Below are positions 5,531 through 53,600 of a stretch of DNA of 64,000 nt, piece by piece (the stretch's first letter is position 1; the number at the start of each line of letters is the position of its first letter). The notes under the pieces are model-generated. The model saw only the letters and a list, made by a program, of their open reading frames with translations. It searched no databases and was not told the origin of the DNA. The position numbers and the translations under genes are program-made. The stretch is from an uncultured virus (IMG/VR IMGVR_UViG_3300022555_000049) (Duplodnaviria; Heunggongvirae; Uroviricota; Caudoviricetes): the IMG/VR virus record IMGVR_UViG_3300022555_000049, one strand, 5' to 3'.

Positions 5531-7148
5531 ATGAACGAAATTATTCTTGAGTTAATTAAAAGGGGTATTAGTGTCACAACTGAATTTGATAAAACCATTG
5601 ATAAGGTTGTTTATACTGTTAATGGATTTTATAAATCTGGAACAGTTAAGTTAATAGAAGAACCTGATGGGTTATATGTTCATCAAAGATATGATCAAGT
5701 AGATAAGGTCGAATCTTGTCGTGAAATTGTGTCTCTTAATTTCTATTGGTGGAATCACAGTAAAGATAGGTTTGATGGATGGAAAGACCCTGATCCAAGA
5801 TGGTTACCGCTTTTAATTGATGAAGGGTTTGTGGAGGCGGTGACAGAAACAATAACAACAATTAAAATTAAATAATTATGTTTGATTGGTTGGAACTAGA
5901 TGAATGTTTGTATAATGAGGATGAAGCGGATAATTGGTATAACGGTAGTTATGTTTCAGAGAGAAAGGCAAGAAAACTTGCCAATGATCCTACTAAGCAT
6001 TATCCAAATAAAAATGAGGCAAAATTGCTTAGACAACTTAAAGTGAAAACTGGTTTAAGTGAGATTGAAATTCGTGAGAATAAAGAATATCGAAAGATGC
6101 TCTCAGTTGCCCAAAAGGAGGGTGAGAAAGCAATAAGAAGTGATATTGATAAGAGACATCAACACTTAATTAAAATCGCTTGTAAAGAGACTAAATTGGC
6201 TAAGGAACATCCTGAGACAATAAAGGTATTACAAAGATTACTTGACAATAGAACTGGATGCACTTGGTATAATCCAGTTATGTCTAAAGCAGAAAATGTT
6301 ATTAAAAAATATAGTAAATGAAAAGAGAAATAACTATTGCAGTAATTTGTAACACTACCGAAGATTTTGAGATGTGGTCTATGATACAAAAGCATAAGCC
6401 TTCTGCTAGGCGTAGCCGAAAAGATTATACATATAAAAATAATAGATATGTTTGCATTATAAGTCCCGAAAATTGTCATGGATTTATTTTCAATGAAATG
6501 ATTGAAACCGATAGTGCTTATCTAAATAAAAGGCATGATATTATTGTGAATTCGATTAAACCGTGTCTCGTAACTAATTTAATTAAATAATTATGAAAAC
6601 AGGATTTGATTGTAAAGTAGTTCATTCCGAAAGTAAATCTGCTTGGAATGTGATTAATATCAATTTGGGTGGGAAATACAAAATTGCTAGAGTACCATAT
6701 ATTACATCTGATTATGATGATATTACAACTAATAATAGATTGGAAGCATTGATACATGCCAAATTTATATGTGATCGTTTCAATGATTATGGTGAAGAAA
6801 CTGGAACTGACGAAGAATTAATTAAAAAATGACATAAATAAAATTTAAATAATCATGAAAATTTTAATTAAACCCAAAGAAGTTATTGGTGATGATTCTT
6901 GGTGTAGAAAACTAGAAGGTGTTATTTTGGTTGAAAAAGAGGAAGATATTGAACCATTGTGGAAACTGTTGTGTGAACAGGATGATTATTGGGAATCATA
7001 TAGAAATATCATCAAAGTAGCACCAAAAGAAATTGATAGTATTAGTGAAATTGTTAGTATGTGCCAATACGCAGGTAAAACGGATATTTATGAACCAGAA
7101 AAACTAAAAGCAATTGTCCCTTTTATTATGTTTCAATATATGTTTTGA
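5531..7148 (+). CDS. cluster of five small hypothetical genes (5531-5875, 5878-6321, 6318-6590, 6593-6832, 6855-7148)
   Basis: tightly packed co-oriented ORFs with 2-22 nt gaps or ATGA overlap. Confidence 0.75.
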
Positions 7149-7168: not shown

Positions 7169-8032
7169 ATGAAAATTAAAGACGTTATAAAAGAAGAGGT
7201 TAATGATTTCATTTTGAATGAAGTTGAGAATGAACTTGGTAAAATGATTAATGAAACCACTTATAAGGTTTATCACGGAACAAATGAAAAGTTCAATACG
7301 TTTGACCCAAACAAAACTGCTGATGGTACGATTTGGTTTACTGATAATGTTGATAGTATTAAAAATGGTGAACATGGTGGAGATGGAAACAAATTCATAA
7401 TGACAAGGCATATCACACTCAATAATCCTGCTGGATGGGATGAATATGAAAAATATTCTATTGGAGAACTGGAAGACATGGGTTATGATGGAGTAATATT
7501 ATCACAAGATGATTATAATAATTTTATTGTTTTCTCTACCAAAAGCATAAGTTCCCGACCAAATGGACTTGGTGAATCAATTGACACTGAAGTTGAGTAT
7601 AATGGCAATCAGGATGATTCAAGTCCTGTTCTCCCAAATTTTGGTGATAGATTGAATCTTAAAGAAGATAAGAAGATTGGTATTAATATAAATGATGATA
7701 CTCAGCCATTCAGTCAACAAATTCTTAATGGCGAAAAAACTATTGAGACTAGAAACACACCAACTTTAAGACCATATGTTGGTAAAAGAGTTGGGATTGT
7801 TAGTACTGGCAAGAATAAGAAAGCAATGCTTGTTGGATTCGTTAATATTGATGATGAATTTGAATATAATAATGAAGAAGCATTTGATAATGATGTTGAT
7901 AATCATTTGGTTACATCTGATTCACCGTTTTATATTAAAGACATTAAATATGGTTATCATCTAAGCAATCCCGAAAAAATTAGTCCTGTTCCTATTGAGA
8001 GCAGAGGAATAGTATCAAGAAAAATTAATTAA
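7169..8032 (+). CDS. ADP-ribosyltransferase-like (ART-PolyVal-like) plus ASCH domain fusion protein
   Basis: VYHGT..F..IWFTDN and GYDGVI in the N-half; QPFSQQILNGEKTIETR ASCH motif in the C-half; start at MKIKDVIKEE preferred over GTG-like 7145. Confidence 0.65.
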   Translation: MKIKDVIKEEVNDFILNEVENELGKMINETTYKVYHGTNEKFNTFDPNKTADGTIWFTDNVDSIKNGEHGGDGNKFIMTRHITLNNPAGWDEYEKYSIGELEDMGYDGVILSQDDYNNFIVFSTKSISSRPNGLGESIDTEVEYNGNQDDSSPVLPNFGDRLNLKEDKKIGININDDTQPFSQQILNGEKTIETRNTPTLRPYVGKRVGIVSTGKNKKAMLVGFVNIDDEFEYNNEEAFDNDVDNHLVTSDSPFYIKDIKYGYHLSNPEKISPVPIESRGIVSRKIN

Positions 8033-8041
8033 AAAATAAAT

Positions 8042-11000
8042 ATGGACAACTTAATTGACAAAATGCCGAATTATTCAGTACTGTATGATGGAAAGTCTTC
8101 ATATAAGGAAGCAAAATTTCAAAATGAAATTATTCTACCTGAAGAACAAATTAAAAGAATTGGTGAATTTAAATTAAAATTAATTGGATTAAAAAATGAG
8201 TTAACTCAACATTATAATGATTTTCCAAATAGAAATTTGGGTGATGCGTTGACTGATATTGATGGAAGCGTTAAAGCATTGAATGCTTTCATGATTAATT
8301 TAAATTAAAAACTTCATAATATATAATTTTAAAGCATTAAGTGAAATTAATACTTTTTTTGTAACATTTTTATTATATTTGCGATAAGTAATTAAAAATA
8401 AAATAATATGAAACGTTCAGAAGTATCAACACAAGAAAAATTGAAATATCTTTCAATGGCAATTGAAGAAATTTATAGAATGAAACAATTTCATTCGACA
8501 CGTAAACCCAAAACGGATATTATTGGATATGCATGTCAATTTACTTCCTATCCTAAATTAAAAAGAGAAGACTTTGAATTGATGTTGAATATGACTATTG
8601 GTGATATTATTAAAAATTTGTGAATATTAATAAAAATCTTTTGTTTATTTGAAAAACATTATTATATTTACGTAATATAATAACAACATAAAAATGAAAC
8701 TATCTGAGGGCATTCTTAAATCTGTTGAATCTGCATTCATGCAGAGTTATCATCCGCCAAAAGTTAAATATAATAAGAATTTTGTTATATAAGTTTTGTA
8801 TAACAATATTATAACTGTTGAAGAAATTACTAATAATTATTAAAATGAGAGAAGTTTTTATATCATTAGAAACGGCTAAGTTAGCAGAAAAAAAAGGATT
8901 TAAAGGATATTGTGAATATGCTTATGTTGAAACAGATTCATATGCTTATACAGATCATCATAGAGGTGACGAATGTGATATGCCATATGTACCACCAAGA
9001 CTTTATCGTACAAGTATTATGTGCCAATATGATAATCATATTGTAGATGCAATGACTCAATCAGAACTACAAAAATGGTTGAGAGAAAATCACAATATTT
9101 ATGTGAACATTGCTTCAAATTCATTAACAGTACACTTTCCAATGAATTCTATATTGGAGGATGGTGGAGGTCAAATGGCAGGACCGAAGTATTTGCAGAA
9201 TTTTAAAACATACGAAGAAGCATTGGAACATGGATTACTTGAAGCATTAAAATTAATTAAGAAATGAGTATAGTAAACGGTTTACGTGAAAATTATATGA
9301 AATACAAAATTGCTGATGCTAAATTATGTGATGATATTTCTAACGATAAATTAACATTTTACGAAGCGTTGGCAAGATGTCATGAGCTATGGGAATTAAT
9401 CCCAAAAGATATTGATGTAAATAATGTTAGAGTTAATAATCTAATGAAAGAAAAATTTGGTGAACTTGATGAATATAAGAAACATTATTCAAAAACATTT
9501 ATGATTGATATTGGCACACTTAAAGAAGAAGATATTGGTGCATATGTTAAAGAAGTTGTTGAAAAGTTTAAACGACCTATTATGAATATTGATCTTGGCA
9601 ATCCTATGGTTGATGATTATGTTGTTAGATTTCACGATAAATACGGTATAACAAATTCTTGTGAGAATTTTATCATGGCAGACGCTAAACAAGATAATCA
9701 TGTTAAACAACATGCAATTGAATTTGCTGAATGGGTATGGAGAAATGCAATTGAGCGTCAACGTAGCGGAACGTATACTTTCAGAGAAGCCAATGGCAAA
9801 GTAAATTCACATACTATTGATGTGTTATATCAAAAATATCTCCAAACCAATTTCAACAATAAAAAAATATAAACAAATATATTATGGCGATTAAATTTAA
9901 AAAAATTAGAACATACGAAAGCAAGCTAACTGAAGAAGAATTAAAAATTCTTTCTTCAACTGAAGACTATATCGATTCACAAATTCGTGAACAGAAATCA
10001 GTGGTGATTGTAATTCCATTATCAATTGCAAAATTTCATTTTTGTCCCGTTAGAAATTGTAAAATTCATCTCCCAACAGATAGAAGAATTTTAATGAGTG
10101 GTGAATTGGAAAGAAGATATTGTAAAGCGGGATGGAAAGCAACCGTTCATGTTAACGATGAATTAGATATAAGAGCTATAGATGGTGATGTTTGGGTATT
10201 AACGGGAAAATTAAATTAATATGGATTTACTAGACTATTTAAAACTTTGTGAAAAGAATCAACATGATTATTTTCATACATCAACACATCCACCTTACAG
10301 TAGTGATAACTTTGGAATTCGTAACACCAGACCATTAATTAATCTTCAAGATAAAATTAATATTACTGATGAATTAAATGCCTTATTAAATAAATATTTA
10401 CAAGAAAATCTTGAACAAGAAACATTTGAGAATGATTATGAATATTTTAAAGAGAAATTACGCAAAGCATTTGAAAAATAATTTTAATTAAAACATATAA
10501 ATATGAGATTAATTGTAACTAATTATGGTGATCCATCAGTAGGAATATTTCCTCAATCTTGGAACGTTGATGTTCCTTTCTGTAAAGATGAGATTGATAA
10601 TCTTGAATGTTTTAGAGAAACTATGTTAAACACATATCGTGATTACGCTAAAGGTAAAATAAGTGCTGTATATGATTTCGAATTTTTTAAAGAACGTGGC
10701 TATTATGAGTGGAAAGATGATAACAGAAGAACAACTTGAAACTCTAAAAGAGTTCGGGAAAGAAGAAGATGGTTCATATTGTGATAGATGGGAATTCTCC
10801 ATCAAAAAACGTTTTGATGATTGGTGCTTTTGGCATTTAAATGAAGTGAACGGTGATTTGTATTTCATAAAGAAATTAAAGTCAATGGAAGATTTGAAAA
10901 ATGTTTATAGGGCAATTACTGATAGACCATTAGAGTTTAAACGTAAGCGTGAGGAAAATTCTAAATTCTTAAAGAATATCATCAACAAAACAAAAAGCTG

Positions 11001-15256: not shown

Positions 15257-15829
15257 TTATTTTTTAGAATTTTCTAAATAATTTAGTGCTATTTTTAAGA
15301 CATCAATATTATCATTAAAATGCCCCAACCCCCTATTACATTTATCACACAATAATCCTCTAATTATACTTGTGTTATGGTCGTGGTCAATTACCAATTT
15401 TTTTGATAAAACATCTTGATGTATGCCACATATTTTACATTTACCGTTCTGAGATTCAAACATATTATCATATTCTTCGGGAGTAATGTTATAATTTTTT
15501 TTTAATTTATAACATCTAACCTTGTCTTTGTTATTTGCATGATATTTTTTATAAACTTCACGTCTAATTTCATTCGACATACAAGGGTAATTTTTTATTT
15601 TTTCGGGACTATTTTTATTCCATTCATTCTTTAATTCTTCAATTCTATCCTTATTTTTTGTTTTATATTCTTTCTGTTGTTTGACAATTTTTTCTTTGTT
15701 TTTAATATCGTACTCTACTCTGGATTCTCGAATTTTTTTCTTATTAAGAATACGGTATTGTTTAATTTTTTCTTTATTCTTTAGTCGATATTCCTTATCG
15801 TACCTTCGTTTTTCTTCGTTAGTTTTCAT
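15257..15829 (-). CDS. Endonuclease VII-family (His-Cys) homing endonuclease
   Basis: YNITPEEY..QNGKCKIC..IDHDH..IRGLLCDKCNRGLG; basic repetitive N-terminus. Confidence 0.85.
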   Translation of the reverse strand: MKTNEEKRRYDKEYRLKNKEKIKQYRILNKKKIRESRVEYDIKNKEKIVKQQKEYKTKNKDRIEELKNEWNKNSPEKIKNYPCMSNEIRREVYKKYHANNKDKVRCYKLKKNYNITPEEYDNMFESQNGKCKICGIHQDVLSKKLVIDHDHNTSIIRGLLCDKCNRGLGHFNDNIDVLKIALNYLENSKK

Positions 15830-15902: not shown

Positions 15903-17075
15903 TTAACAAATATCATGCACCCTCGCACCAATAATTTTCATTAACTCGGTGAACGGTCTTTCTTCAGGCTCACAATTAATTGCTTTCTCAATAGGAGGTT
16001 CATTTGCTCTTATCTTCTCAATCTGAACTTCAAGTTCTTGAAGCTCATATTCACAATAATCTTCTTCGAAATATGCTTGTTCAATGATGTCAATTTTTTT
16101 ATCAACATAGGTTGCAACTGCAAAAGGAAAATATTCAGTTACTCTCATCTTGGAATGATCATAATTAGGTACAGCTACCACATTTGCAGGATTAACCATA
16201 CATGCAAGAATAACTGAACCATTATTTGCAAAACGTTCGACATACCCCGTAGCCCCGACATGTAATCCATGAGAGCAGTCAATTGCAGGATCGGAATCAC
16301 ATTCAGTCCTTATCATTCTCACTGGCACTCCAAGTTCAATACCCATCGTTCTTGTGTGCATATCAGTATATGTTGCAACAGTTTCGACTTCTTCTTCTGC
16401 ACTTTTAAAAATTGCAACATACAATTCACCAAGTTTACCTAAAGTATCAAGATTATTAGCAACAGCCGTATCATACTTGGTGATAGCCAAATCACCTTCG
16501 TTGTTCTTGATTACTACATATTTGTTCGGATTACACTTCCAATCTTTCTTCACGTGAAGATATTGGTTGCTTACAAATTCTTCAAACGTTCTATCACGTT
16601 TAACTTCTGTTTCTTTGCGATATACAGCCTTGTAGACCACCATATAACCTTTGTCAGTCAGAACAAAGTCATGAGTAGTAATGAAGTCAAAAAGACTCTT
16701 ACGAACCCTTGTATCAGGGTTAATCATCAGTAGTTTCCAAAAGTTGATGATTGCATCCATAGGATAACCATTTTCATGGTATTCCTTGATTACATCAACC
16801 AATGTTAATGGAATTGGTGTGTTGAATCCTGCAAGAAAAATCTCGCCAGTATCTACATCACTTTCCAATCCTGCCAACATAGCAATACGTGTCTTTTCGT
16901 TGAGACACATACGAACCGCTTTTAGATTTACATCAGATGGATTCTCTTTGGCTACCAACACCAATTTGAATAACTCATCTGCTTCTTTAGGTGAACCGCA
17001 GTTTTTCTTATGCAACTTACCGTTGATACTGATATTCACTACGTTACCGATTTTGACTCCTTGAATGTTTTTCAT
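15903..17075 (-). CDS. rIIB: rIIB-like protein
   Basis: NFWKLLMINPD..LFDF, YKAV, CSHGLHVG, VNPANVVAVP, KMRV motifs typical of rIIB. Confidence 0.85.
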   Translation of the reverse strand: MKNIQGVKIGNVVNISINGKLHKKNCGSPKEADELFKLVLVAKENPSDVNLKAVRMCLNEKTRIAMLAGLESDVDTGEIFLAGFNTPIPLTLVDVIKEYHENGYPMDAIINFWKLLMINPDTRVRKSLFDFITTHDFVLTDKGYMVVYKAVYRKETEVKRDRTFEEFVSNQYLHVKKDWKCNPNKYVVIKNNEGDLAITKYDTAVANNLDTLGKLGELYVAIFKSAEEEVETVATYTDMHTRTMGIELGVPVRMIRTECDSDPAIDCSHGLHVGATGYVERFANNGSVILACMVNPANVVAVPNYDHSKMRVTEYFPFAVATYVDKKIDIIEQAYFEEDYCEYELQELEVQIEKIRANEPPIEKAINCEPEERPFTELMKIIGARVHDIC

Positions 17076-17129
17076 AAAAATGAATTTAATGTGTTAATGT
17101 TACAATTATACGAATAATAATTAATAATG

Positions 17130-18154
17130 TTACAAAAGTTCATCCATAAATTTCTTATGTGCAGCTAGAATTCTTTTAGCTTCTTCCCATTCATCATTAG
17201 TATATGGTAATGTGCTAATTAATGGCGCATCCAATTCTATTAATTCAGAATCTTTTACTATTATCCTTAATTCTTTCATCAATTCAGTAAAAGCATTTGT
17301 CATGTTTATATAATATGCCATAGCACTGGTGCTACTATATTCTACTTTCTTAAATTCTTTATATGCAGAATCCATTTTTTTATCTGCATTAATCACTAAT
17401 TTCTCCAATTCTTTATTCATAATATTAATTAAAAATTAAACGGATTGTCTTTTCCAAACATATCGCCAAACATACTAAAAATATCTTCAACACATTTAGT
17501 AACCACCATACTCTAAAAATTATTGTGCTTCTTTTTTAGATATTCATCTAATTTTAATTTTGCGTGAAGTTCACCCATACAGTTTTTTACTTTCATTATA
17601 TGAGATTCTTTATTTCTATTTGTGAAGTAAATATCATAATCAATTACAAACGTTTTCTCTTTCATTTTAATTAAAATTAGTGTGTGCCATCTGTTAATGA
17701 TATTCCATGTTTAATGCCCGAAATGAAACTATCTTTTTCAAAACCAAATTTATCTTCATCAATCCAATCCCCAACGATAATTCCAATTTCATTGCCAACA
17801 TCAGATAAGTCACCGTTCTCACATGAAACCGTTTGTAACCTTGTCGATAGGTCTGTTAATATGTTTTTAAACTCTGTCATATTGATTATACGTAATATTA
17901 AATCAAAATGTTACAAAAATAATAATTTAATTAAAATGGGCAAAATTCTTTAATTGGTTTTCTTAACATTGGTTTTAATTTATGTAAACTATAAAATTTT
18001 TTACCGAACCAATATCCAATTGATCCTGAATTATACGACTGTTTTAATTTTCTATTTGTTTTAAGATTGTATAAACATTTGTCACTACCAAAACCATAGT
18101 TATTATATCCAACAACCATCCATTCGATTTCAATAGTATATGTAACTGATTTCA
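17130..18154 (-). CDS. small hypothetical genes (17130-17420, 17677-17880, 17931-about 18154 NUMOD4-like)
   Basis: ORF track; the last has VVGYNNY..SDKCLYNLKTNRKLK resembling NUMOD4. Confidence 0.6.
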
Positions 18155-18210
18155 TGTTCTTTAATCTTAGGTAATATTGCGCATATAAGGGAGTTATGTA
18201 TAATAAAAAA

Positions 18211-21200
18211 TCAGTTAAGTTTTCTAACAACATTATTATCTAAAAAATTTAACTTTCTACCATTATAGTAAGGTGTTTTCATTTCACTACCCCAAACCCA
18301 ACCATTTCTATCTATCTTCTCAACCACAAACGTTCCTTGGTCATTATCCCAACCTATCATACCAGTACAATCAGTTACAGTATCACCGATAGAAATGGTA
18401 CAGAATTCCTTTGTTTTGAAATGAAACCCTTGTGTAGATTTTTTACTATACATAACAAAGTATAAACGTAATGTTTTCAATCAATCTTTTTATCATAATT
18501 TCAAGTTTTATATTTCAAATTAAGTTCAGTTAAACACTACGTTTATACTCAACCGTTAGGCAACATTTAAAGAAGTGCAACCTTATCCACGTCCGTAGCG
18601 TGGTCAAATAATTTTCTGTATTCGTCAATTGTTAAGTCGCAAAGCCTTTTCTTATTAAAGAATTGAATCATTGCTTCCCATTGAAATCTATCGTTAAAAT
18701 CAAGCAAATAATAGTATGTTCTTGCTGAAACTTCTGTACCGTCTGCTAATGTTTTCATAATTGTAATTAAAAACGTTGCCTAACAATAAATAAAATTAAT
18801 AGCGCATGTTAGGTTTGTGCATCTATCAAAGTGTAGCGGTTGCGCTACTAATCTTATTAAAACCGTTATGCACCATATTCACGATAGTACACTTTACCAT
18901 CCTTTTTGTTTTTTAGGTTAACAGAGAATTTACCATTAGTACATTCTGCATCCCAATCTTCGTCTCTCTCTTCACCTTTTGCTCTATTAAAAAACAAAAG
19001 CCTATTACAGTCACAAGAGTAGTTGTTCTCTTCCCAATTAAAAACAGATGGATGTTCGTCACCTATTTCTAATATTTCTTCTGTCTCATACTCTCGAATT
19101 TCGCATGTATCGTTTTTTCTAATTTCAGCAATACACTCTACCCAAATACAGTTTTTTATTTGGTGCGTTTCTTTTTTTACTTCTATCCAATCCATCTGTT
19201 TTTTAATTTAATTGTTAATAAAAATTACGGTGCATAACAAGGTATATATGTTATACGCCATGAAGTGTCGTACTTAATTTTAAAGTTTGTGGTTAGGCGT
19301 ACAACACATATACCCAACCGTTAGTTGCTATTTGGACACTTGACATTAACCTCAATCCCATCGCCATGAGTTTTCACATCAATAGCACCCCATATTTCAC
19401 AACCACACTCATATTCAATATCCCACACATGAAGTGAATTACCTTCACGTTTTATCTTTGCACCACAAACAAAACAGCAACTAACATCGTGTATAGCACA
19501 TTGCTGTTCGTTTTTCAAATTATCATTTTCCATATTTTTAAAGTTTAGTGTTTCAAATTAAGTTTCGTGTAAGCAACGTGCCATACACGCAACCGTTAGC
19601 ACCAATACTACTTATCCACTTCGATTTCCGATAATAGTTGAAGAACGAACTCATTAGCACCAACATTATGGTTTAGTTCCATTTTTTGTAAATCTTCTAA
19701 ACTTATTATCATCGAATTTACTATTATACCATCTTCCATTATACTAATTTTTATTTCCTTTTTTTTCATAACTTTTTTATTTTTAATTATCACATATTTT
19801 TTGAGAGATACCAACGAATAATTGTTCACCTTCGTCTGATTCATAATCATAAGATGTTACTTTATTTTTAATTAATTCTAATTTTGCAATGTCTTCGTAC
19901 CTTTCTTCTTGTATTAAATACTTTTTAAATTTTTCATACATATTCTTTGGTACAAATACTATTCTATTTGGAGTTGTGAGTATTGTACTTAAAACTGGTT
20001 CTTCTACACCACAATCTAATTCAATTTTTTCCATATTATTTTTTTTACAAAGTTACTAATTATTTCTCAATTAATCAAGTTTTATCTTAAAATCACCGTA
20101 CTGGTGCTAACAAGGTGTATAAGAAAGTTTTTTACAAAGGTAGGTATAAATTTTGAGATTTCCAAATAAAAAACCTTCTCATACACCCAACCGTTAGCAC
20201 CAATACTACGATAGTGCTTCTATTGAAATTATTTTTATGTTGGAATCATCAATTACCACTATTTCGTTTTCCCACCACTGGGTGCTTCGTTCCCATAAAG
20301 TTCTTTTCATATCAATATTGTCTTTATTTATCTGTCCTTTGATTATATAAACTTGACCATCTTTATTTTTAAACGGTTTTAAATAATCTAACATCTGAAA
20401 AAACCCTTCTTCGTGGATTTGGTTTGGATTTGAAAACCAACTATTACCTAATTCGTTTTTTCTTAGGTCATTTATGTTTTTTAATCTAACTAATCTATAT
20501 ATTATTGGATTATTTGGTATGTTACCCAATTCAATCGGATATGGTTTTGATAAAAACAGTTTAAAATCTTCAACAGCACATTTTATAGCATCTTCAAGAT
20601 TATCAGTATCATCCCAACACCCACTCGATGAATATTCACCTTCTAATCCCCATTTTGCAATTTCATATAAATCATTTTCATTTAATAAACTCTTACTCTC
20701 ATTTAGATATTCTCTTATTGTAGTTGCTATAAATTTGCGTAGTTTCATATCTTTCTCCATATATTTTACTTTATATATAAATATTCAAATTTTAATTTTC
20801 CTCCCCAAAAAAATAAAAAAAAGGTTCAGTGCTTCGTATCAATGTTTGTAGGTTAAATCCGCACTGCATATAACACCGTGTATAAGCAATGGCACATAAG
20901 CGGTGTAGCTAATTTGAAAGTGTGTACAAGTGCCACTGCTCATACACAAACCGTTATGAAACATTGTCTTCACTTCTATTTCCGTAAAAGACTTTTGCTT
21001 GTGTCCAAGTGTTTTCGATAACTTTATCAATTAGTTCTTTTATTGTCCTACTATCTACATATCCACCACGTCTTTTACTAAGTATGTCTAAAGACCAATG
21101 TTTTTTTCCTTTTTTAATCATTTCCTGTTCTTCAACAGACAACGATTTCATAACATCAGATATATTCAAGTTTTCTGATGCTTCGTTTAACTGTTGTTGT

Positions 21201-21771
21201 GTCTTTATATGTTTCATCTTCGTTTATTATTTTAGTGTATATATTAAAAAAGAAAACCTAAATATATCTGTGACCGTTAGCAACAATTAAGCAGACACAT
21301 CGTAATGCAATAACCCATCTCTTACATTTTGCATCAAATCACCGAGTGGCGTTTGTAATACTCTAACCACATCAAATTTATATTTCTTACCACCTACTTC
21401 GTGATAAATACCATCCTGTTGTGCTGACCTTATCACATTCAATAATTCATCAATTGTTTTTATCTGTTTCATAATATTAACTGTTGCTAACAAGGTATAT
21501 ACGAAATACCCTATTAAGGTTTGTATTAAATTTTAACATTTGTGGTTATCGCCTCAACTTCAAATATTTTTGCAATATGCGGGTAATTATAATTTTTTCG
21601 TTCTAACGCACCCTTTTTTGTTTTATACATCATTGCTTCTTCAATATTTTCCGTAAATGACCATTCATAATTTCGCTGTTTGGTTGCATAATATCCTTTA
21701 ACATCATAAAAGGTATTTAGTAAACCTGCTTGTTTCATTTTACCTTCATAGTATACAACAAATCTTTTCAT
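18211..21771 (-). CDS. cassette-borne small hypothetical genes (18211-18480, 18567-18758, 18866-19195, 19321-19533, 19608-19769, 19783-20034, 20206-20760, 20954-21217, 21287-21472, 21526-21771)
   Basis: one or two ORFs per inter-site unit; several stops lie within or next to the TAAC end of a site. Confidence 0.7.
18450..18561 (-). repeat. attC-like site 1
   Basis: ACATAAC..AGTATAAACGTAATGTTT / AAACACTACGTTTATACT..AACCGTTAGGC. Confidence 0.8.
18778..18871 (-). repeat. attC-like site 2
   Basis: GCCTAAC..TAGCGCA / TGCGCTA..AACCGTTATGC. Confidence 0.8.
19232..19326 (-). repeat. attC-like site 3
   Basis: GCATAACaaGGTATAT..TACGCC / GGCGTA..ATATACCcAACCGTTAGTT. Confidence 0.8.
19479..19601 (-). 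repeat. attC-like site 4
   Basis: AACTAACatCGTGTAT..GCAC.TTGCT / AGCAA.GTGC.ATACACGcAACCGTTAGCA. Confidence 0.8.
20105..20199 (-). repeat. attC-like site 5
   Basis: TGCTAACaaGGTGTAT.AGAA / TTCT.ATACACCcAACCGTTAGCA. Confidence 0.8.
20868..20959 (-). repeat. attC-like site 6
   Basis: ATATAAC..GTGTAT.AGCA.TGGCAC / GTGCCA.TGCT.ATACAC..AACCGTTATGA. Confidence 0.8.
21148..21282 (-). repeat. attC-like site 7
   Basis: TCATAACatCAGATATATT / AATATATCTGtgACCGTTAGCA. Confidence 0.75.
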
Positions 21772-21892
21772 TTTATAATAATTTTAAGTGATTAATAACT
21801 GTGCATAGCAACAAATATAAAACATTTTGTTTTCATACCGTCATCGTTATACGCTCTAATTTAAATTTTGTTACAAAAAGTAAGGCACTGAA

Positions 21893-24193
21893 TTACAGTA
21901 CCATAACTTTTCTCAACACATTAATAAGACCTTCTTGGTAAAGTGAACCGCTATATGGAATATCAATATACTTTAAGACATCCTTATTTGCTTCTTTCAA
22001 CAATTCAATCTCATCAAGTAATACACCCATTTTTTTATGCTCAGGTAACAATTGAACGTCTCTCAGTTTAAAGAATTTTGATAAATCATTTGTATGATAG
22101 CGAAGACCATCTTCATTGCTCTTTGGAAGAGATTGGATAAACAATTTAACATTATTAATCCTATTGCCCCAAGTAGCATCAACCTTATGAAAATCACCAT
22201 TAGTATAAATGTTCCCAAAACCTTCCCAACGTTCTTTTAATTGATATGTTCTAAAATAATTCAAAACAACATCTTCTTTTCTGTAAAGCATTTTATTGTA
22301 GAAATCATTAACATGATAAGCGTTCTTACAATACTTCATGTACTTAACATTCACCTGTGAAAACATGATGAACATTATACTACCCTTACCGCTTTTTCTA
22401 TATGAATAGCCGTTAATAACCTTACCCTCATTGTTTGTTGTGGTTACCATCATGTTCTTATCAAACAATAATTCAAACATATTCTTTGCGGTAACCAACT
22501 TATCTTCATCATCAGTTGAACCATAGAAGATTGGAAAATCATATTTAAACAACTCATCCAATTTAATCCTTGACTTTGAATGACCATTAAAAAACTTTGC
22601 GGGGATGGTTAATTTACGCATTTCTTTGGTAATTGAAGCACCTCTACTTTTTCTCTCTGCAACAAAGTCCTCTGGAATTTCAAGATTATCATAACTAAGA
22701 GATTCAGCTTTAACAATCCCAAAATATTCATCTTGCATCAATATCAAGTCATGAACGTATTGAACTGGAACACCATTATCATCAACACTCTTATCAAGAT
22801 GTACATTGAACACTTCACAAATTTCACTGCGAAGCACATTAATGGTTAAATCTCTTTTGCTGATAATATGATAGTTTTCAAACTTGAAATTCAAATATCC
22901 TTGCTTAATAACTTTACGATCAAAATAATCATCAACATGCAATAGATTGTTATTCTTTTTCAATTCCTCATAACCACCTTCAAATTCCGTGCTATTGTAA
23001 CGACTTCTTGTTTTCTTCTTACCAAAAGTCTTAATATTAAAGAATAATTTGAACAATGTCTTATCACTAGGCATTTTCATGAAACTATACTTGAAATTCG
23101 AAAAATCAACATCTTTCTGCTTAATCAAGTTACCTACATATATTGAAACCCCATTGTCAAACTTTAACATTCCAAAGTTATTTTTAACATTAAAGTATTG
23201 CTCTAAGCTAACGATATCTTCGTATTGTTTAGCAATGAGTGCAATAATTTCATTCTTGGCTTCTTCCAATTTCTTCTTCAACATCTTAATGGTGCTTTCG
23301 CTATAATCTAAGCTCTCTCTTGATACAGTTACATCAATGTCACCTACTTCAAGCTTTAATGCAATTGGAAGCTTGTAATCGCCCATAGATAAGCCAAGTG
23401 CGGTATAATCCAATGGATATGCAACTCTACCCAAACAAACATGAATGTAGTCTGAATAATCCTTACCTCTGAAAAGAAAATTTTTACCTCTGATGATTTG
23501 ATAGTCATTTGTTAAAATTTCATTGTAACGAGATTCTTCTTCAAAACCTTCAAAGATTACATTCTCAAAATAATATAATTGACGAACCATTTCTTTTGCA
23601 AATGTATTCAAATCACCACTAAGTACTGGAATACGTACCTCAGTACCATTATGCTCAGTTGTTGGCTCACTATGCAATAATGAATATTTGGGTCGAAGAT
23701 TACTTCCCTCATAAATTTGGTAAACATATTTAATGTGATTAAAATTAGTGACAATAAAATATGAATTGTCATATTCGCCTTGTCCCAAACCAGTACTACG
23801 TTTATAAGCAAGAGGGGTCTTTGATCCCAACCCAAATGCACCAATTTGTTCATTATCATTACGTTTAGTACTACTAAACATAACAGAAAAAACATTCTTA
23901 ATTCTATCTGAAGACATGCCTATTCCATAATCAATAAACGAAATGTGATATGAATTAGTTTCCTTGTCATATGATTTACGAATAATAACAGGCGCATTTA
24001 CCTTTGCTTCAATATGTGAATCGAAGCAATTTGATGCGATTTCACGCACAACACTCCCAATGGGATTAGAATAAATTCCTTTGGAAAACATTTGAAAAAT
24101 AATTGACTGTGCGTCTTTATCAAGAGTAATATCATTTTCCTCAACGGTAGATAATACCTCAATGTCTGATAATGTGTTCGTGTTGTAGATCAT
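21893..24193 (-). CDS. rIIA: rIIA-like protein with N-terminal GHKL (HATPase) domain
   Basis: YSNPIGSVVREIASNCFDSH, DYGIGMS, STKR..QIGAFGLGSK, NGT, SRESLDY; upstream of rIIB. Confidence 0.88.
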   Translation of the reverse strand: MIYNTNTLSDIEVLSTVEENDITLDKDAQSIIFQMFSKGIYSNPIGSVVREIASNCFDSHIEAKVNAPVIIRKSYDKETNSYHISFIDYGIGMSSDRIKNVFSVMFSSTKRNDNEQIGAFGLGSKTPLAYKRSTGLGQGEYDNSYFIVTNFNHIKYVYQIYEGSNLRPKYSLLHSEPTTEHNGTEVRIPVLSGDLNTFAKEMVRQLYYFENVIFEGFEEESRYNEILTNDYQIIRGKNFLFRGKDYSDYIHVCLGRVAYPLDYTALGLSMGDYKLPIALKLEVGDIDVTVSRESLDYSESTIKMLKKKLEEAKNEIIALIAKQYEDIVSLEQYFNVKNNFGMLKFDNGVSIYVGNLIKQKDVDFSNFKYSFMKMPSDKTLFKLFFNIKTFGKKKTRSRYNSTEFEGGYEELKKNNNLLHVDDYFDRKVIKQGYLNFKFENYHIISKRDLTINVLRSEICEVFNVHLDKSVDDNGVPVQYVHDLILMQDEYFGIVKAESLSYDNLEIPEDFVAERKSRGASITKEMRKLTIPAKFFNGHSKSRIKLDELFKYDFPIFYGSTDDEDKLVTAKNMFELLFDKNMMVTTTNNEGKVINGYSYRKSGKGSIMFIMFSQVNVKYMKYCKNAYHVNDFYNKMLYRKEDVVLNYFRTYQLKERWEGFGNIYTNGDFHKVDATWGNRINNVKLFIQSLPKSNEDGLRYHTNDLSKFFKLRDVQLLPEHKKMGVLLDEIELLKEANKDVLKYIDIPYSGSLYQEGLINVLRKVMVL

Positions 24194-24266: not shown

Positions 24267-25478
24267 TTAATTAAGGTTTCCTTGTAATATTTCCTCAATT
24301 TCTTTAACATCTAAAAAACTAAGCGCCATTTTATCTTTTTTTCTTTTAAAAAAATAAGTTGCTTTATTATATAATTTTTCGTATATGTCTTTTAAATCAT
24401 CCTTATTGTTAACAGTTAAACTATATGAATCTTTGAAATTAGCAACATGTTCTTTAACCATTAAAGATTTGGCTTCAATTAAATTAATGTCAAACGATTT
24501 AATGTTTAAAACAAGAGCAATTTTCTCTAAAATTGATTTATTGTACGCTGTAATATTAAATTCTCTGTTATAACCAGATAATCTATTTCCTACTCTACGT
24601 ACTTGTAAAACACAACTTCCATCACCATCAAAATATCCTCTAATAAAATGATACATTAAATCTATGGGCAGATCGGGTATGTTTTTAGTTGTATATGTTT
24701 TATTGTTATCGTATCCTAATTTTAACAAATCTTCACCAATCTTTTTAGATGTAATTGCTATTGATGCCAAATTTTTCTTACAAGAAATTACACTATCTTT
24801 AGATATGTGTTTTAAATATAATTTAAGTATGTGCGAATCATTTAATTGTACACCGACTCTTAACGAATAAGAACAATAATCAGTTCTTTTTTCAATATGT
24901 CCATCAGCAGCAAAAAATCCCAATAAATATGCTTTAATTTCAGAATCAATATTTTCGAAAAAATTTTCATTGTGACATAGTTGCCTCGCTTCTGAGAATG
25001 ATTTAACTTTAAATCCAAGTCTTTTGATGTAATTTACAAATCTTGTGGGATGTTCTATTTTATAGTCCTCTACAATTTTTTTAATTGAACCATTTTTCTC
25101 TCCTATATATGCTTGGTATGCTTCATAATAAAAATCTTTTTCAGATTCAGAATACCTTTCGAAATAATCTCTTGGATTTATATTATGAACCATTTTTAAA
25201 CGTTTAGATACTATTTCTGGCGATCTTTTAAACCTTTTCCCAATGTCTTTACATGACATTCCATTAATATATGAATCATGCCATAAATTTATTTCATCTT
25301 CCAAGATTTCGGGTCTTCCATGTAGGTTCAAATAATTAATAAGATTATTCTCATCAATCAAATTACGACCATGATCATCTTTTTTTGTTACAATAATATT
25401 ACTTCTTAATATCGCACTATAAATTAATCTTTCGGTACAATTGAATTTTATTGCCAAATCTTTTATTGTATATAACAT
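24267..25478 (-). CDS. double-motif LAGLIDADG homing endonuclease
   Basis: KAYLLGFFAADG and HFIRGYFDGDG motifs; N-terminal HTH-like segments. Confidence 0.88.
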   Translation of the reverse strand: MLYTIKDLAIKFNCTERLIYSAILRSNIIVTKKDDHGRNLIDENNLINYLNLHGRPEILEDEINLWHDSYINGMSCKDIGKRFKRSPEIVSKRLKMVHNINPRDYFERYSESEKDFYYEAYQAYIGEKNGSIKKIVEDYKIEHPTRFVNYIKRLGFKVKSFSEARQLCHNENFFENIDSEIKAYLLGFFAADGHIEKRTDYCSYSLRVGVQLNDSHILKLYLKHISKDSVISCKKNLASIAITSKKIGEDLLKLGYDNNKTYTTKNIPDLPIDLMYHFIRGYFDGDGSCVLQVRRVGNRLSGYNREFNITAYNKSILEKIALVLNIKSFDINLIEAKSLMVKEHVANFKDSYSLTVNNKDDLKDIYEKLYNKATYFFKRKKDKMALSFLDVKEIEEILQGNLN

Positions 25479-52859: not shown

Positions 52860-53600
52860 CTACTTAAGTGAGTAGGAAGTACCAACGAATTTTAACTCTG
52901 CTTTCAGCATCTCCCTACAACGTAGGATTTGTACTTTAACATTACCTAATGACATATCTAAAGTTTCTGCAATTTCTTTATAACTGTACTGCCCAATGAA
53001 ATAGAGTTGAGCAATTTGTTGATACTTTGGTTTAAGACTGTTAAAACCTTTGTTAACACTTGTTAACAATTCCTCATTTTCGCTTTCTGCACTTGCATCG
53101 CTCTGAGCATCAAATTCTAACCATTCGCTACCATCTTCGTTAACAAAATCACTGATGTAGGTCTTGTTATTAACTCTCATTTTGGTGACAGTACTGTTGC
53201 CAAAATCATCAACATCCTCAACACTCTTAACACAAGTATCTTTGTGATAAGAATCAATAATTAATTGGTATGCGATACCCTTCAACCAAGTGGTTATCTT
53301 GCCTTTGGTTGAGTCGTAACCATATTTATCAGCCTTTAAAAAAGTATCATTGCAAACTTCCTTTGCAACTTCCTTATGTTTGTAGTTCATCTTATAATTG
53401 ATGAACTGTAAAACTTCATTATAATACTTTGAGTAGATTTGCTCAAACGTCATTTCTTTCTCAACCTTAACAGTACCTTTGGCAATGCCCCAAGACTGTT
53501 TCATACAGAAACTAAACATTTCCATTGTCCTAACAGATTGGTTTCTAAACATTTGCCAAGCACGTTTCATTATTTCTGATTTGTTGTAGGTCGTTTTCAT
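52860..53600 (-). CDS. ECF-type sigma-70 family RNA polymerase sigma factor
   Basis: region 2 FEQIY..AKEVCNDTFLK..ITTWLKGIA..IID; region 4 LKPKYQQI..YSYKEIAETLDMSLGNVK.QILR.R; ATG at 53600 preferred. Confidence 0.88.
   Translation of the reverse strand: MKTTYNKSEIMKRAWQMFRNQSVRTMEMFSFCMKQSWGIAKGTVKVEKEMTFEQIYSKYYNEVLQFINYKMNYKHKEVAKEVCNDTFLKADKYGYDSTKGKITTWLKGIAYQLIIDSYHKDTCVKSVEDVDDFGNSTVTKMRVNNKTYISDFVNEDGSEWLEFDAQSDASAESENEELLTSVNKGFNSLKPKYQQIAQLYFIGQYSYKEIAETLDMSLGNVKVQILRCREMLKAELKFVGTSYSLK

Follow-up and report, generated by a model that had tools for sequence, protein, structure and literature searches.

An array of small, hairpin-bounded gene units between rIIB and rIIA of a large lake-water phage, probably part of a phage-borne, integron-like cassette system

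The stretch considered here is a window of 64,000 nucleotides (the whole stretch of DNA that was analysed) from the uncultured virus IMGVR_UViG_3300022555_000049, a member of the Caudoviricetes recorded in IMG/VR, in which a cassette array of about nine small gene units bounded by hairpins occupies positions 18193-21850. The virus is a large lake-water phage, and the array lies, as an earlier note on this DNA had claimed, between genes similar to rIIB (15903-17075, minus strand; PHROG RIIB, best E 1.7e-34) and rIIA (21893-24193, minus strand; PHROG RIIA, E 6.3e-59), which form the lower and the upper border of a variable interval. All genes from rIIB to rIIA are located on the minus strand, and a terminator-like hairpin is found at 21884-21902.

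Read on the plus strand, each boundary element starts with TAAC, followed by a spacer of 2-4 nt, a stem arm, a loop, the second arm, a spacer of 5-6 nt and GTTA. Seven of these sites are intact (E1, 18453-18558; E2, 18781-18868; E3, 19235-19323; E4, 19482-19598; E5, 20108-20196; E6, 20871-20956; E7, 21151-21279), measuring 86-129 nt, or 98-141 nt with their boxes included, and all seven have the ACCGTTA end on the plus strand, a heptamer occurring 15 times in the window against 4.5 expected. Around seven units, GTTA and the six bases after it return as an exact inverted copy ending in TAAC, over 10 nt in six pairs (18193/18456, 18555/18784, 18865/19238, 19320/19485, 19595/20111 and 21276/21491) and over 9 nt in one (20953/21154). 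By this rule, the six-base box behind the GTTA of one site recurs, as its reverse complement, just ahead of the TAAC that opens the next site, and each of the seven matching units has a 6-nt box of its own. The earlier note had described seven inverted repeats of this form, their asymmetric spacers, the co-oriented genes between them and seven complementary pairs of cassette ends, each pair with its own sequence, and all of these were recovered. It does not mention three further parts of the array: the unit at 20193-20870, with unmatched boxes (GCACCA versus TGCATA), an eighth site (E8, 21488-21548) truncated by loss of the right arm, and a degenerate ninth site (E9, 21806-21849), where TAGC replaces TAAC.

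The left end of the array (18170-18202) reads GCGCATATAAGGGA followed by GTTATGTATAAT. The junction itself (18170-18196, plus strand), formed by GCGCATATAAGGGA and then GTTA, is without a left hairpin arm and does not fold (0.0 kcal/mol on the plus strand, -0.7 on the minus strand), being similar to the attI-like motif of related arrays that is described below. Just behind this end, at the place where relatives carry a recombinase gene, there is a minus-strand gene of 74 aa (17931-18155), for which no Pfam or PHROG family was found. The loci L103 and L047 have the same layout, with a 42% identical homologue of this gene (L103, 6388-6609) behind a similar junction. In our estimation, the sequence pattern of the 74-aa protein recalls the small DNA-binding modules of homing endonucleases.

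The cassettes then succeed each other, all with genes on the minus strand. Cassette 1 (18194-18555) has an 80-aa open reading frame (ORF; 18211-18453), the boxes GTTATGTATA/TATACATAAC and site E1, whose 86% homologue in the phage record LR756500.1 has different boxes on both sides. Cassette 2 (18556-18865) encodes 63 aa (18567-18758), with boxes GTTAGGCAAC/GTTGCCTAAC and site E2, and cassette 3 (18866-19320) encodes 109 aa (18866-19195), with boxes GTTATGCACC/GGTGCATAAC and site E3. The 70-aa ORF of cassette 4 (19321-19595; ORF 19321-19533) starts inside the loop of its own site, E4, reading on through the E4 arm and the box. Two ORFs, of 53 aa (19608-19769) and 83 aa (19783-20034), are present in cassette 5 (19596-20193), which has the boxes GTTAGCACCA/TGGTGCTAAC and site E5. 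Cassette 6 (20194-20953) encodes 184 aa (20206-20760) and includes, besides site E6, a leader module that is conserved; it is followed by cassette 7 (20954-21276), whose 87-aa ORF (20954-21217) starts in the loop of site E7 and whose boxes, GTTATGAAA/TTTCATAAC, match over 9 nt. Cassette 8 (21277-21548) has a 61-aa ORF (21287-21472), the boxes GTTAGCAACA/TGTTGCTAAC and the truncated site E8, which belongs to repeat family D3, and a remnant of cassette 9 (21526-21849) has an 81-aa ORF (21526-21771) and the degenerate site E9, whose left arm AACAAATATAAAAC matches sites in locus L001. None of the 11 cassette ORFs could be assigned to a family with Pfam or PHROGs, and a tblastn search with them against all fetched loci found only N-terminal leaders in common. 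The cassette ORFs are opposite in strand to the R''-to-R' polarity of the sites and point towards the attI-like end.

The sites are not restricted to this phage. A search of IMG/VR with the site-end pattern returned at least 133 stretches with at least 114 contig names, many of the contigs being 100-460 kb long, and a simple detector called 355 non-redundant sites, with 213 units between neighbours, among the matches listed, to which all counts of units given here refer. Complementarity of the boxes extends to exactly 10 nt in 91 of the units, with 59 distinct boxes, to 9 nt in 41 and further in none. When boxes were re-paired at random, at least 9 nt were reached in 350 of 20,000 trials (1.75%) and 10 nt in 206, against 132 and 91, respectively, of the 213 observed units. 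Isolated 9-nt pairs are expected six to eight times per shuffled window and occur six times outside the array, so the improbable part is the chain, where the right-end box of one site pairs with the left-end box of the next, and not the isolated pair; a chance origin of the array was rejected on this ground. The 462-kb record LR756500.1 has an array of its own following the same box rule. Moreover, A stands at position 11, after the paired stretch, in every one of 132 units, opposite C in 81 of 91, with pairing resumed at position 12 in 74 of 91; what is an A.C mismatch on one strand is a G.T wobble on the gene-sense strand, and a mismatch kept at a fixed place is meaningful for a folded single strand only. 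Insertion of hairpins similar to miniature inverted-repeat transposable elements was rejected, as it yields neither complementary boxes spanning a gene nor uniform orientation, and the ligation of modules by 4-nt overhangs was discarded, since it leaves the same two features unaccounted for. Gene switches inverting between inverted sites were rejected as well, because the invariant A at position 11 means that no unit was flipped.

Conservation of the hairpin was followed in an alignment of 70 sites, all from other contigs and with no sequence of the window, from which the covariance model R1 was built. TAAC and GTTA are invariant in 70 of 70 sites, compensatory changes are present at 15 of 16 stem pairs, and two A.C mismatches of the stem are kept, one in 64 of 70 sites and the second in 40 of 70, again as G.T wobbles on the gene-sense strand. 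This strand has the more stable fold in 280 of 315 sites. When folded together with the box of the cassette itself, five of the seven window cassettes gain about 2-9 kcal/mol, and E5 folds with a full 10-bp outer stem because an identical box stands on both of its flanks. The earlier note had suggested a covariance model as a check, and in the 64-kb window R1 matched six sites at 56-88 bits and E 4.9e-14 to 4.7e-8, all within 5e-8 (E1, 1.1e-8; E2, 4.7e-8; E3, 4.9e-14; E4, 4.5e-8; E5, 5.4e-13; E6, 3e-11). E7 scored weakly due to its long loop, the truncated E8 reached 0.0046 and the decayed E9 4.6; outside the array region of the window, nothing was found below E 1.

Such a structure could also be one of RNA, with hairpins for processing or stability and with boxes that pair the 5' and 3' ends of a cistron into a panhandle after cleavage, mobility being secondary. 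The G.U-compatible positions on the transcribed strand, both in the stem and at position 11, would be expected from it, as would the better folding of that strand and the orientation of the genes, all of which run with the structures. Meanwhile, a search of Rfam gave no family match, the sole hit (E 0.93) being inside a gene, and RNA structures explain neither the association with a recombinase and an attI-like motif nor the cassette-precise differences in DNA presented next, so that we consider this explanation quite improbable.

The association with a recombinase was seen in the relatives. In a complete phage genome of 310 kb, a 268-aa protein encoded beside the array matches PF00589 with 121.8 bits, and tblastn with this recombinase found 17 viral contigs having it near arrays (within 6-kb flanks). 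In 16 of these 17, taken in the orientation of the sites, the gene comes just past the leftmost one and its transcription leads away from the array; the remaining contig has an N-terminal fragment with sites on both sides. Among arrays with at least four detected sites and at least 2.4 kb visible on the relevant side, the recombinase is present in 13 of 24. In addition, at least 12 of the 17 loci have a conserved non-hairpin motif, TATATAnTA-GTTA-N6-AT, some 35-65 nt upstream of the recombinase gene, in the interval that separates its start from the first GTTA. It is attI-like, in that it has the appearance an attI would have. Following the polarity of the sites, the layout is integron-like, with a leftward recombinase, the attI-like site and then cassettes of the form TTA-box...box'-TAAC-hairpin-G, and the relatives' cassette genes are on the other strand, directed towards the recombinase. 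This pairing at a fixed array end speaks in favour of the earlier note, which had proposed a search for IntI or other tyrosine recombinases.

Regarding its family, the relatives' recombinase scores 178.8 bits with the NCBIfam model of XerA (cut-off 220) and 156.7 bits with TIGR02249, the model of IntI (cut-off 265), the latter matched in two pieces, and PDB 4a8e is among its best family and structure matches (E 9e-33). The motifs RVSE, HTLRH, GHS and IYTH are readable in its sequence, and we take them to be its catalytic residues. By these matches, the enzyme is an Xer-like tyrosine recombinase and not an IntI. It is similar in length to XerA and XerC/D and, like them, is without the IntI insertion; however, its XerA score stays below the 220-bit cut-off and it is found at the end of a cassette array rather than at a chromosome dimer-resolution site. 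In a 465-kb phage, the recombinase gene is split by an opposite-strand ORF of 261 aa with a GIY-YIG-type start (L042, 9668-11073, corresponding to L136, 1162-2588). The C-terminal part resumes past this ORF, which looks like the insertion of an intron or a homing endonuclease.

Differences between near-identical phages fall exactly at the core, GTTA or AAC, as the earlier note had expected from a comparison of cassette content. Loci L007 and L023 share 99.86% identity along 7284 nt, up to a right-end GTTA, within a few bases of which they part; beyond this point, L023 has two other cassettes, the attI-like motif and, about 0.7 kb on, the recombinase, and L007 has other cassettes, its contig ending before the recombinase side is visible. 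The cultured Polaribacter phages Freya_1 and Freya_10, whose integrase shares 36% identity with the relatives' recombinase, have flanks that are 100% and 99.6% identical around a differing 4.9-kb block of 12 genes; this block has AAC at both borders (three shared bases) and is placed immediately upstream of the integrase gene. Model R1 gave only weak hits on the Freya phages (E 0.17 and 0.53), their hairpins being of a diverged type, so this indel supports the class of mechanism and not the exact site family. In the relatives, variation is concentrated at the attI-like end.

Individual hairpins have likewise been joined to varying surroundings. E3 is 98% identical to a site of locus L016, with related left flanks and unrelated right flanks, and in the family of E5 about 100 nt of left flank are common to four loci whose right flanks are unrelated. 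Among 868 pairs of similar sites from different loci, which are not independent of each other, 90 have only the left box in common and 16 only the right one, an excess fitting a crossover at the right end of the site. In the families of E4 and E7, homology also stops at the left TAAC. The same hairpin cores are thus employed with many different boxes, comparable to the near-uniform attC sites of a sedentary integron, and part of the reshuffling may come from homologous exchange or from exchange of the opposite strand.

Homologous exchange is central to another explanation, in which the hairpins are regulatory elements of the type of the promoter early stem-loops (PeSLs) and the general homologous recombination of the phage swaps, deletes and circularises the genes between them. 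In the parts of the reports available, PeSLs are intergenic stem-loop modules in the hyperplastic regions of large lytic T4-type phages, proposed as drivers of shuffling and of mini-circles (PMC2839356, PMC4122927), with shuffling and mini-circles reported for RB49/phi1 (PMC2839356). As in those reports, repeated stem-loop modules flank small non-essential genes here. The variable interval lies between conserved genes, hairpin families are common to contigs with boxes mostly differing on both sides, arrays persist in genomes without the recombinase, and two genes of the window start in hairpin loops, those of E4 and E7, so that the sites also hold expression signals. PeSLs, as described in the available text, are unlike these sites in being homology-based and composed of a sigma-70 promoter and a terminator. 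Here, neither kind of signal is enriched: sigma-70 promoter-like sites number 15 against 25.3 +/- 4.7 in shuffles, and terminator-like sites two against 1.0 expected, with one only inside a hairpin site (E2). Moreover, the boxes of the array are cassette-specific and its relatives have a dedicated recombinase. Homologous exchange gives no reason for complementary boxes spanning a gene or for the mismatch at position 11, leaves the recombinase at its fixed end and the attI-like motif unexplained, and does not account for an indel bounded by three shared bases only, as in Freya. For these reasons, we hold PeSL-type exchange to be an unlikely source of the array, and site-specific movement of cassettes to be the better reading.

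Promoters were also considered on the side of the host. The strict Bacteroidota -7 motif, TAnnTTTG, stands upstream of two of 11 starts in the cassette region, so a promoter is not claimed for every cassette. The scarcity of host-type promoter motifs in the array may be due to a sigma factor of the phage. A sigma-70-family factor and a protein with an ART-PolyVal ADP-ribosyltransferase domain are encoded in the window at 52860-53600 and 7169-8032.

Some shared sequences inside the cassettes are of interest in themselves. Cassettes 5 and 6 both begin with the 17-nt string GTTAGCACCAATACTAC (19595-19611 and 20193-20209), and the mismatched boxes of cassette 6 are probably due to this repeat, through a secondary exchange. 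A tail related to the string, AT(A/G)CTAC, which includes a stop codon, ends many cassettes elsewhere. A module of 260 nt (20699-20957), formed by hairpin E6, the leader and the beginning of the 184-aa gene (its first 21-31 codons, MEKDMKLRKFIATTIREYLNE), has copies of about 80% identity in many other contigs, with four in L071-73. The common N-terminus is fused to unrelated protein bodies. We assume a resemblance of this N-terminus to the capsid-targeting leaders of T4 internal proteins, and the proteins bearing it may, by this analogy, be packaged in the virion. Meanwhile, the first 22 or so codons of the 87-aa gene (MKHIKTQQQLNEASENLNISDV) lie within hairpin E7 (21151-21217). In locus L010, hairpins of the E7 family (7003-7131 and 8190-8318) are joined to other genes or sequence beyond TAAC, which indicates that the site itself supplies the common N-terminus.

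As for the location, the content of the interval between rIIA and rIIB is different in every relative. The two most distant rIIA relatives (46-49% identity) have the two genes adjacent, as seen in loci L145 and L146, where the rIIB homologue comes about 70-160 nt past rIIA. The closest relative (L142, 75% rIIA identity) has 2 kb of other genes between them and no sites, and neither a site nor the recombinase was found in its complete 328-kb genome, while relatives with 60% rIIA identity have a recombinase-linked array elsewhere in the genome. As presence and position vary in this way, the arrays are patchy and differently placed in this phage group. Nuclease genes stand on both sides of the interval, with a LAGLIDADG endonuclease gene (24267-25478) just upstream of rIIA and a homologue of endonuclease VII with a 107-residue N-terminal extension (15257-15829) just downstream of rIIB; L142 has a weaker endonuclease VII homologue between rIIA and rIIB.

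Contigs of other sequencing runs were compared with the window. Several part from it precisely where a site ends, as after position 20956, and one of run X8 goes on past 21540 into a complete right arm; they represent other cassettes with the same hairpins. In the Logan contigs of runs X2, X4, X8 and X9, which cannot reveal rare circles or deletions and have gaps at repeats, no joints were found, and one back-join between two similar loop motifs was not read as a circle. Unchanged in contigs of 2016 and 2020, the array looks stable over the sampled years.

Concerning the hosts, cultured phages with a related enzyme infect Polaribacter and Cellulophaga. The site pattern was also found at 72 loci of a species-genome collection, of which about 44 have names that we assign to Bacteroidota. 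Many are short contigs of metagenome-assembled genomes (MAGs) that may be phage DNA; large contigs of isolates are also among them, those of Robiginitalea, Roseivirga, Prolixibacter, Sabulibacter and Flavivirga. Related short recombinases are present at two isolate loci (Robiginitalea and Roseivirga) and at several MAG loci. Loci L196 (a 329-kb contig of a Prolixibacteraceae MAG), L184 and L210 combine the site family with short recombinases, L196 having two such pairs. The bacterial contigs could represent chromosomal versions of the system or prophages, and the phage-borne system is widespread in large phages, probably of Bacteroidota.

These occurrences raise the question of whether the array is a fragment of an ordinary bacterial integron taken from a Bacteroidota host and served by the IntI of that host, that is, a cluster of attC sites lacking integron-integrases (CALIN), as attC clusters of virulent phages have been interpreted in print. 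With seven intact and two decayed sites and no integrase in 64 kb, the window would be a CALIN if its sites are counted as attC-type. The TAAC/GTTA cores are compatible with this, and so is one box pair, GCCTAAC/GTTAGGC, which we take to be a classical core site. The same site pattern in Bacteroidota isolate chromosomes also agrees with it. In the accessible parts of Qi et al. (2023; PMC9892861), CALINs are described in virulent phages, including a flavobacterial Polaribacter phage, with cargo that is unknown or related to DNA modification, as clusters of at least two predicted sites (three in one example) usable by bacterial IntI1, which recombined five of six phage attC sites. These are integrase-free attC clusters in lytic phages, as here; the same parts of that paper describe no recombinase belonging to the phage, no attI-like site and no reversed gene polarity. 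Against a host origin, the partner enzyme is the 268-aa Xer-type protein and not IntI, in the phages as well as in those chromosomal loci that were checked, the direction of the genes is opposed to integron polarity, the GC content of the array (0.302) equals that of the phage flanks (0.295), and the sites occur in at least 114 viral contig names. An ordinary integron fragment is, in our judgement, a most improbable origin, and the evidence points rather to a system of the phages themselves.

The comparison with integrons, mainly the sedentary chromosomal ones, is nevertheless close. In both, cassettes of one or two genes are separated by imperfect inverted repeats with AAC/GTT cores, and each cassette opens with bases complementary to the inverse core that its own site carries, as in seven units of the window and 132 of 213 elsewhere among the matches listed. 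Sites are homogeneous and cassettes diverse, mostly without known function; structure is conserved more than sequence, as in attC-type sites; and the relatives have their recombinase and attI-like site at the end predicted by site polarity, where the variation is found. On the other hand, the relatives' recombinase has 268 aa, is about 48 residues short at the IntI insertion and scores below the IntI cut-off. Complementarity covers 10 nt and is followed by a fixed mismatch at position 11, the spacers measure 2/5 nt, and fixed A.C/G.T positions replace the extrahelical bases described for attC. Genes are on the opposite strand, some starting in the hairpin, and are not oriented for reading from a common Pc promoter at the integrase end, and the host is a virus, whose window copy is without a recombinase. 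Since the enzyme is not an IntI and the genes are reversed, the array is best described as integron-like and not as an integron.

Taken together, we consider it likely that the window holds an array of about nine mobile gene cassettes belonging to a phage-borne, integron-like system. Compared with the Xer-type cassette system of the relatives, the site family and the 6-nt boxes are present and the 268-aa recombinase is absent; it is an orphan array, as it has the attI-like end without the recombinase in the window, and may equally be a resting one. Read along the plus strand, a cassette would start with TTA and its private 6-nt box, carry one or two genes in the opposite direction, and close with the complement of the box, TAAC, the imperfect hairpin and a final G. 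In a putative free circle, the two boxes would meet, lengthening the hairpin by a 10-bp stem. The short Xer-type tyrosine recombinase would then recognise the folded single strand, its supposed substrate, and exchange strands at G|TTA (TAA|C on the gene-sense strand), the likely point of cleavage. The earlier note had the polarity right; a G|TTA crossover on the plus strand of the window gives integron geometry. Cassettes would be inserted at the attI-like site and excised between hairpins, and for an orphan array to move, the enzyme would have to be supplied by another part of the genome, by a co-infecting phage or by the host. How the array is built, how far its family reaches, that it is linked to the recombinase and that relatives differ exactly at cassette borders are direct observations, and from them we infer the folding of single strands as substrate, the exact cleavage point, the circles and activity in this phage.

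Several results weigh against this reading. As the earlier note had already remarked, there is no tyrosine recombinase in the window (Pfam, including PF00589, on 116 ORFs, and tblastn), which leaves a recombinase-free span around the array of 18 kb on one side and 42 kb on the other. In the relatives, 11 of 24 arrays with the relevant side visible are without an intact recombinase, and an intact copy is likewise absent from three of the five large phage records that were searched, two of which have a completeness rating of 100%; arrays therefore persist without the enzyme. Compared with VchIntIA (2a3v), the recombinase has 33 residues where IntI has 81, about 48 fewer. The shortened region is, as we understand it, the IntI-specific insertion that reads extrahelical bases. 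The action of an Xer-type enzyme on folded single strands, like recombination by the 268-aa protein in general, is thus putative. In the window, one unit has mismatched boxes and two sites are decayed, and 761 of the 868 pairs of similar hairpins have different boxes on both sides, so a single crossover point does not explain all reshuffling. The G.T wobbles, being on the transcribed strand, fit an RNA structure equally well. Finally, four other runs from two further studies (2016 and 2020) contain the array at 99% identity or more, in contigs from lake and fresh water with no alternative joint, one contig of 3859 nt spanning 17087-20946, so that no turnover was seen.

A broader version of the integron-like reading, to which we give an even chance, is that large Bacteroidota phages own a second, independent type of integron, in which a minimal Xer-type enzyme lacking the IntI insertion would act on folded single-stranded hairpins, their specificity coming from private 6-nt boxes and fixed G.T wobbles, with genes lying backwards and partly in the hairpin. 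Orphan arrays would be docking stations served in trans when phages co-infect, and unrelated phages would trade accessory genes from a shared pool of cassettes, probably including counter-defence and virion-packaged genes. A full-text literature search for hairpin-bounded cassette arrays with an Xer-type recombinase of the phage itself gave nothing beyond the papers on phage CALINs and PeSLs.

Integrons are regarded as a bacterial device dependent on one specialised integrase. If the reading is true, viruses would run their own version of the integron with a simpler enzyme, and the properties that let a recombinase work on folded single strands, long a matter of debate, would become directly testable. 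It would also show by what concrete means small genes without known function are so rapidly exchanged in the variable parts of large phage genomes, and the attC-like clusters of lytic phages would be explained without capture from hosts. To this, the window adds an enzyme-free array at a site that is empty in relatives, which bears on how the platform spreads and on its service in trans.

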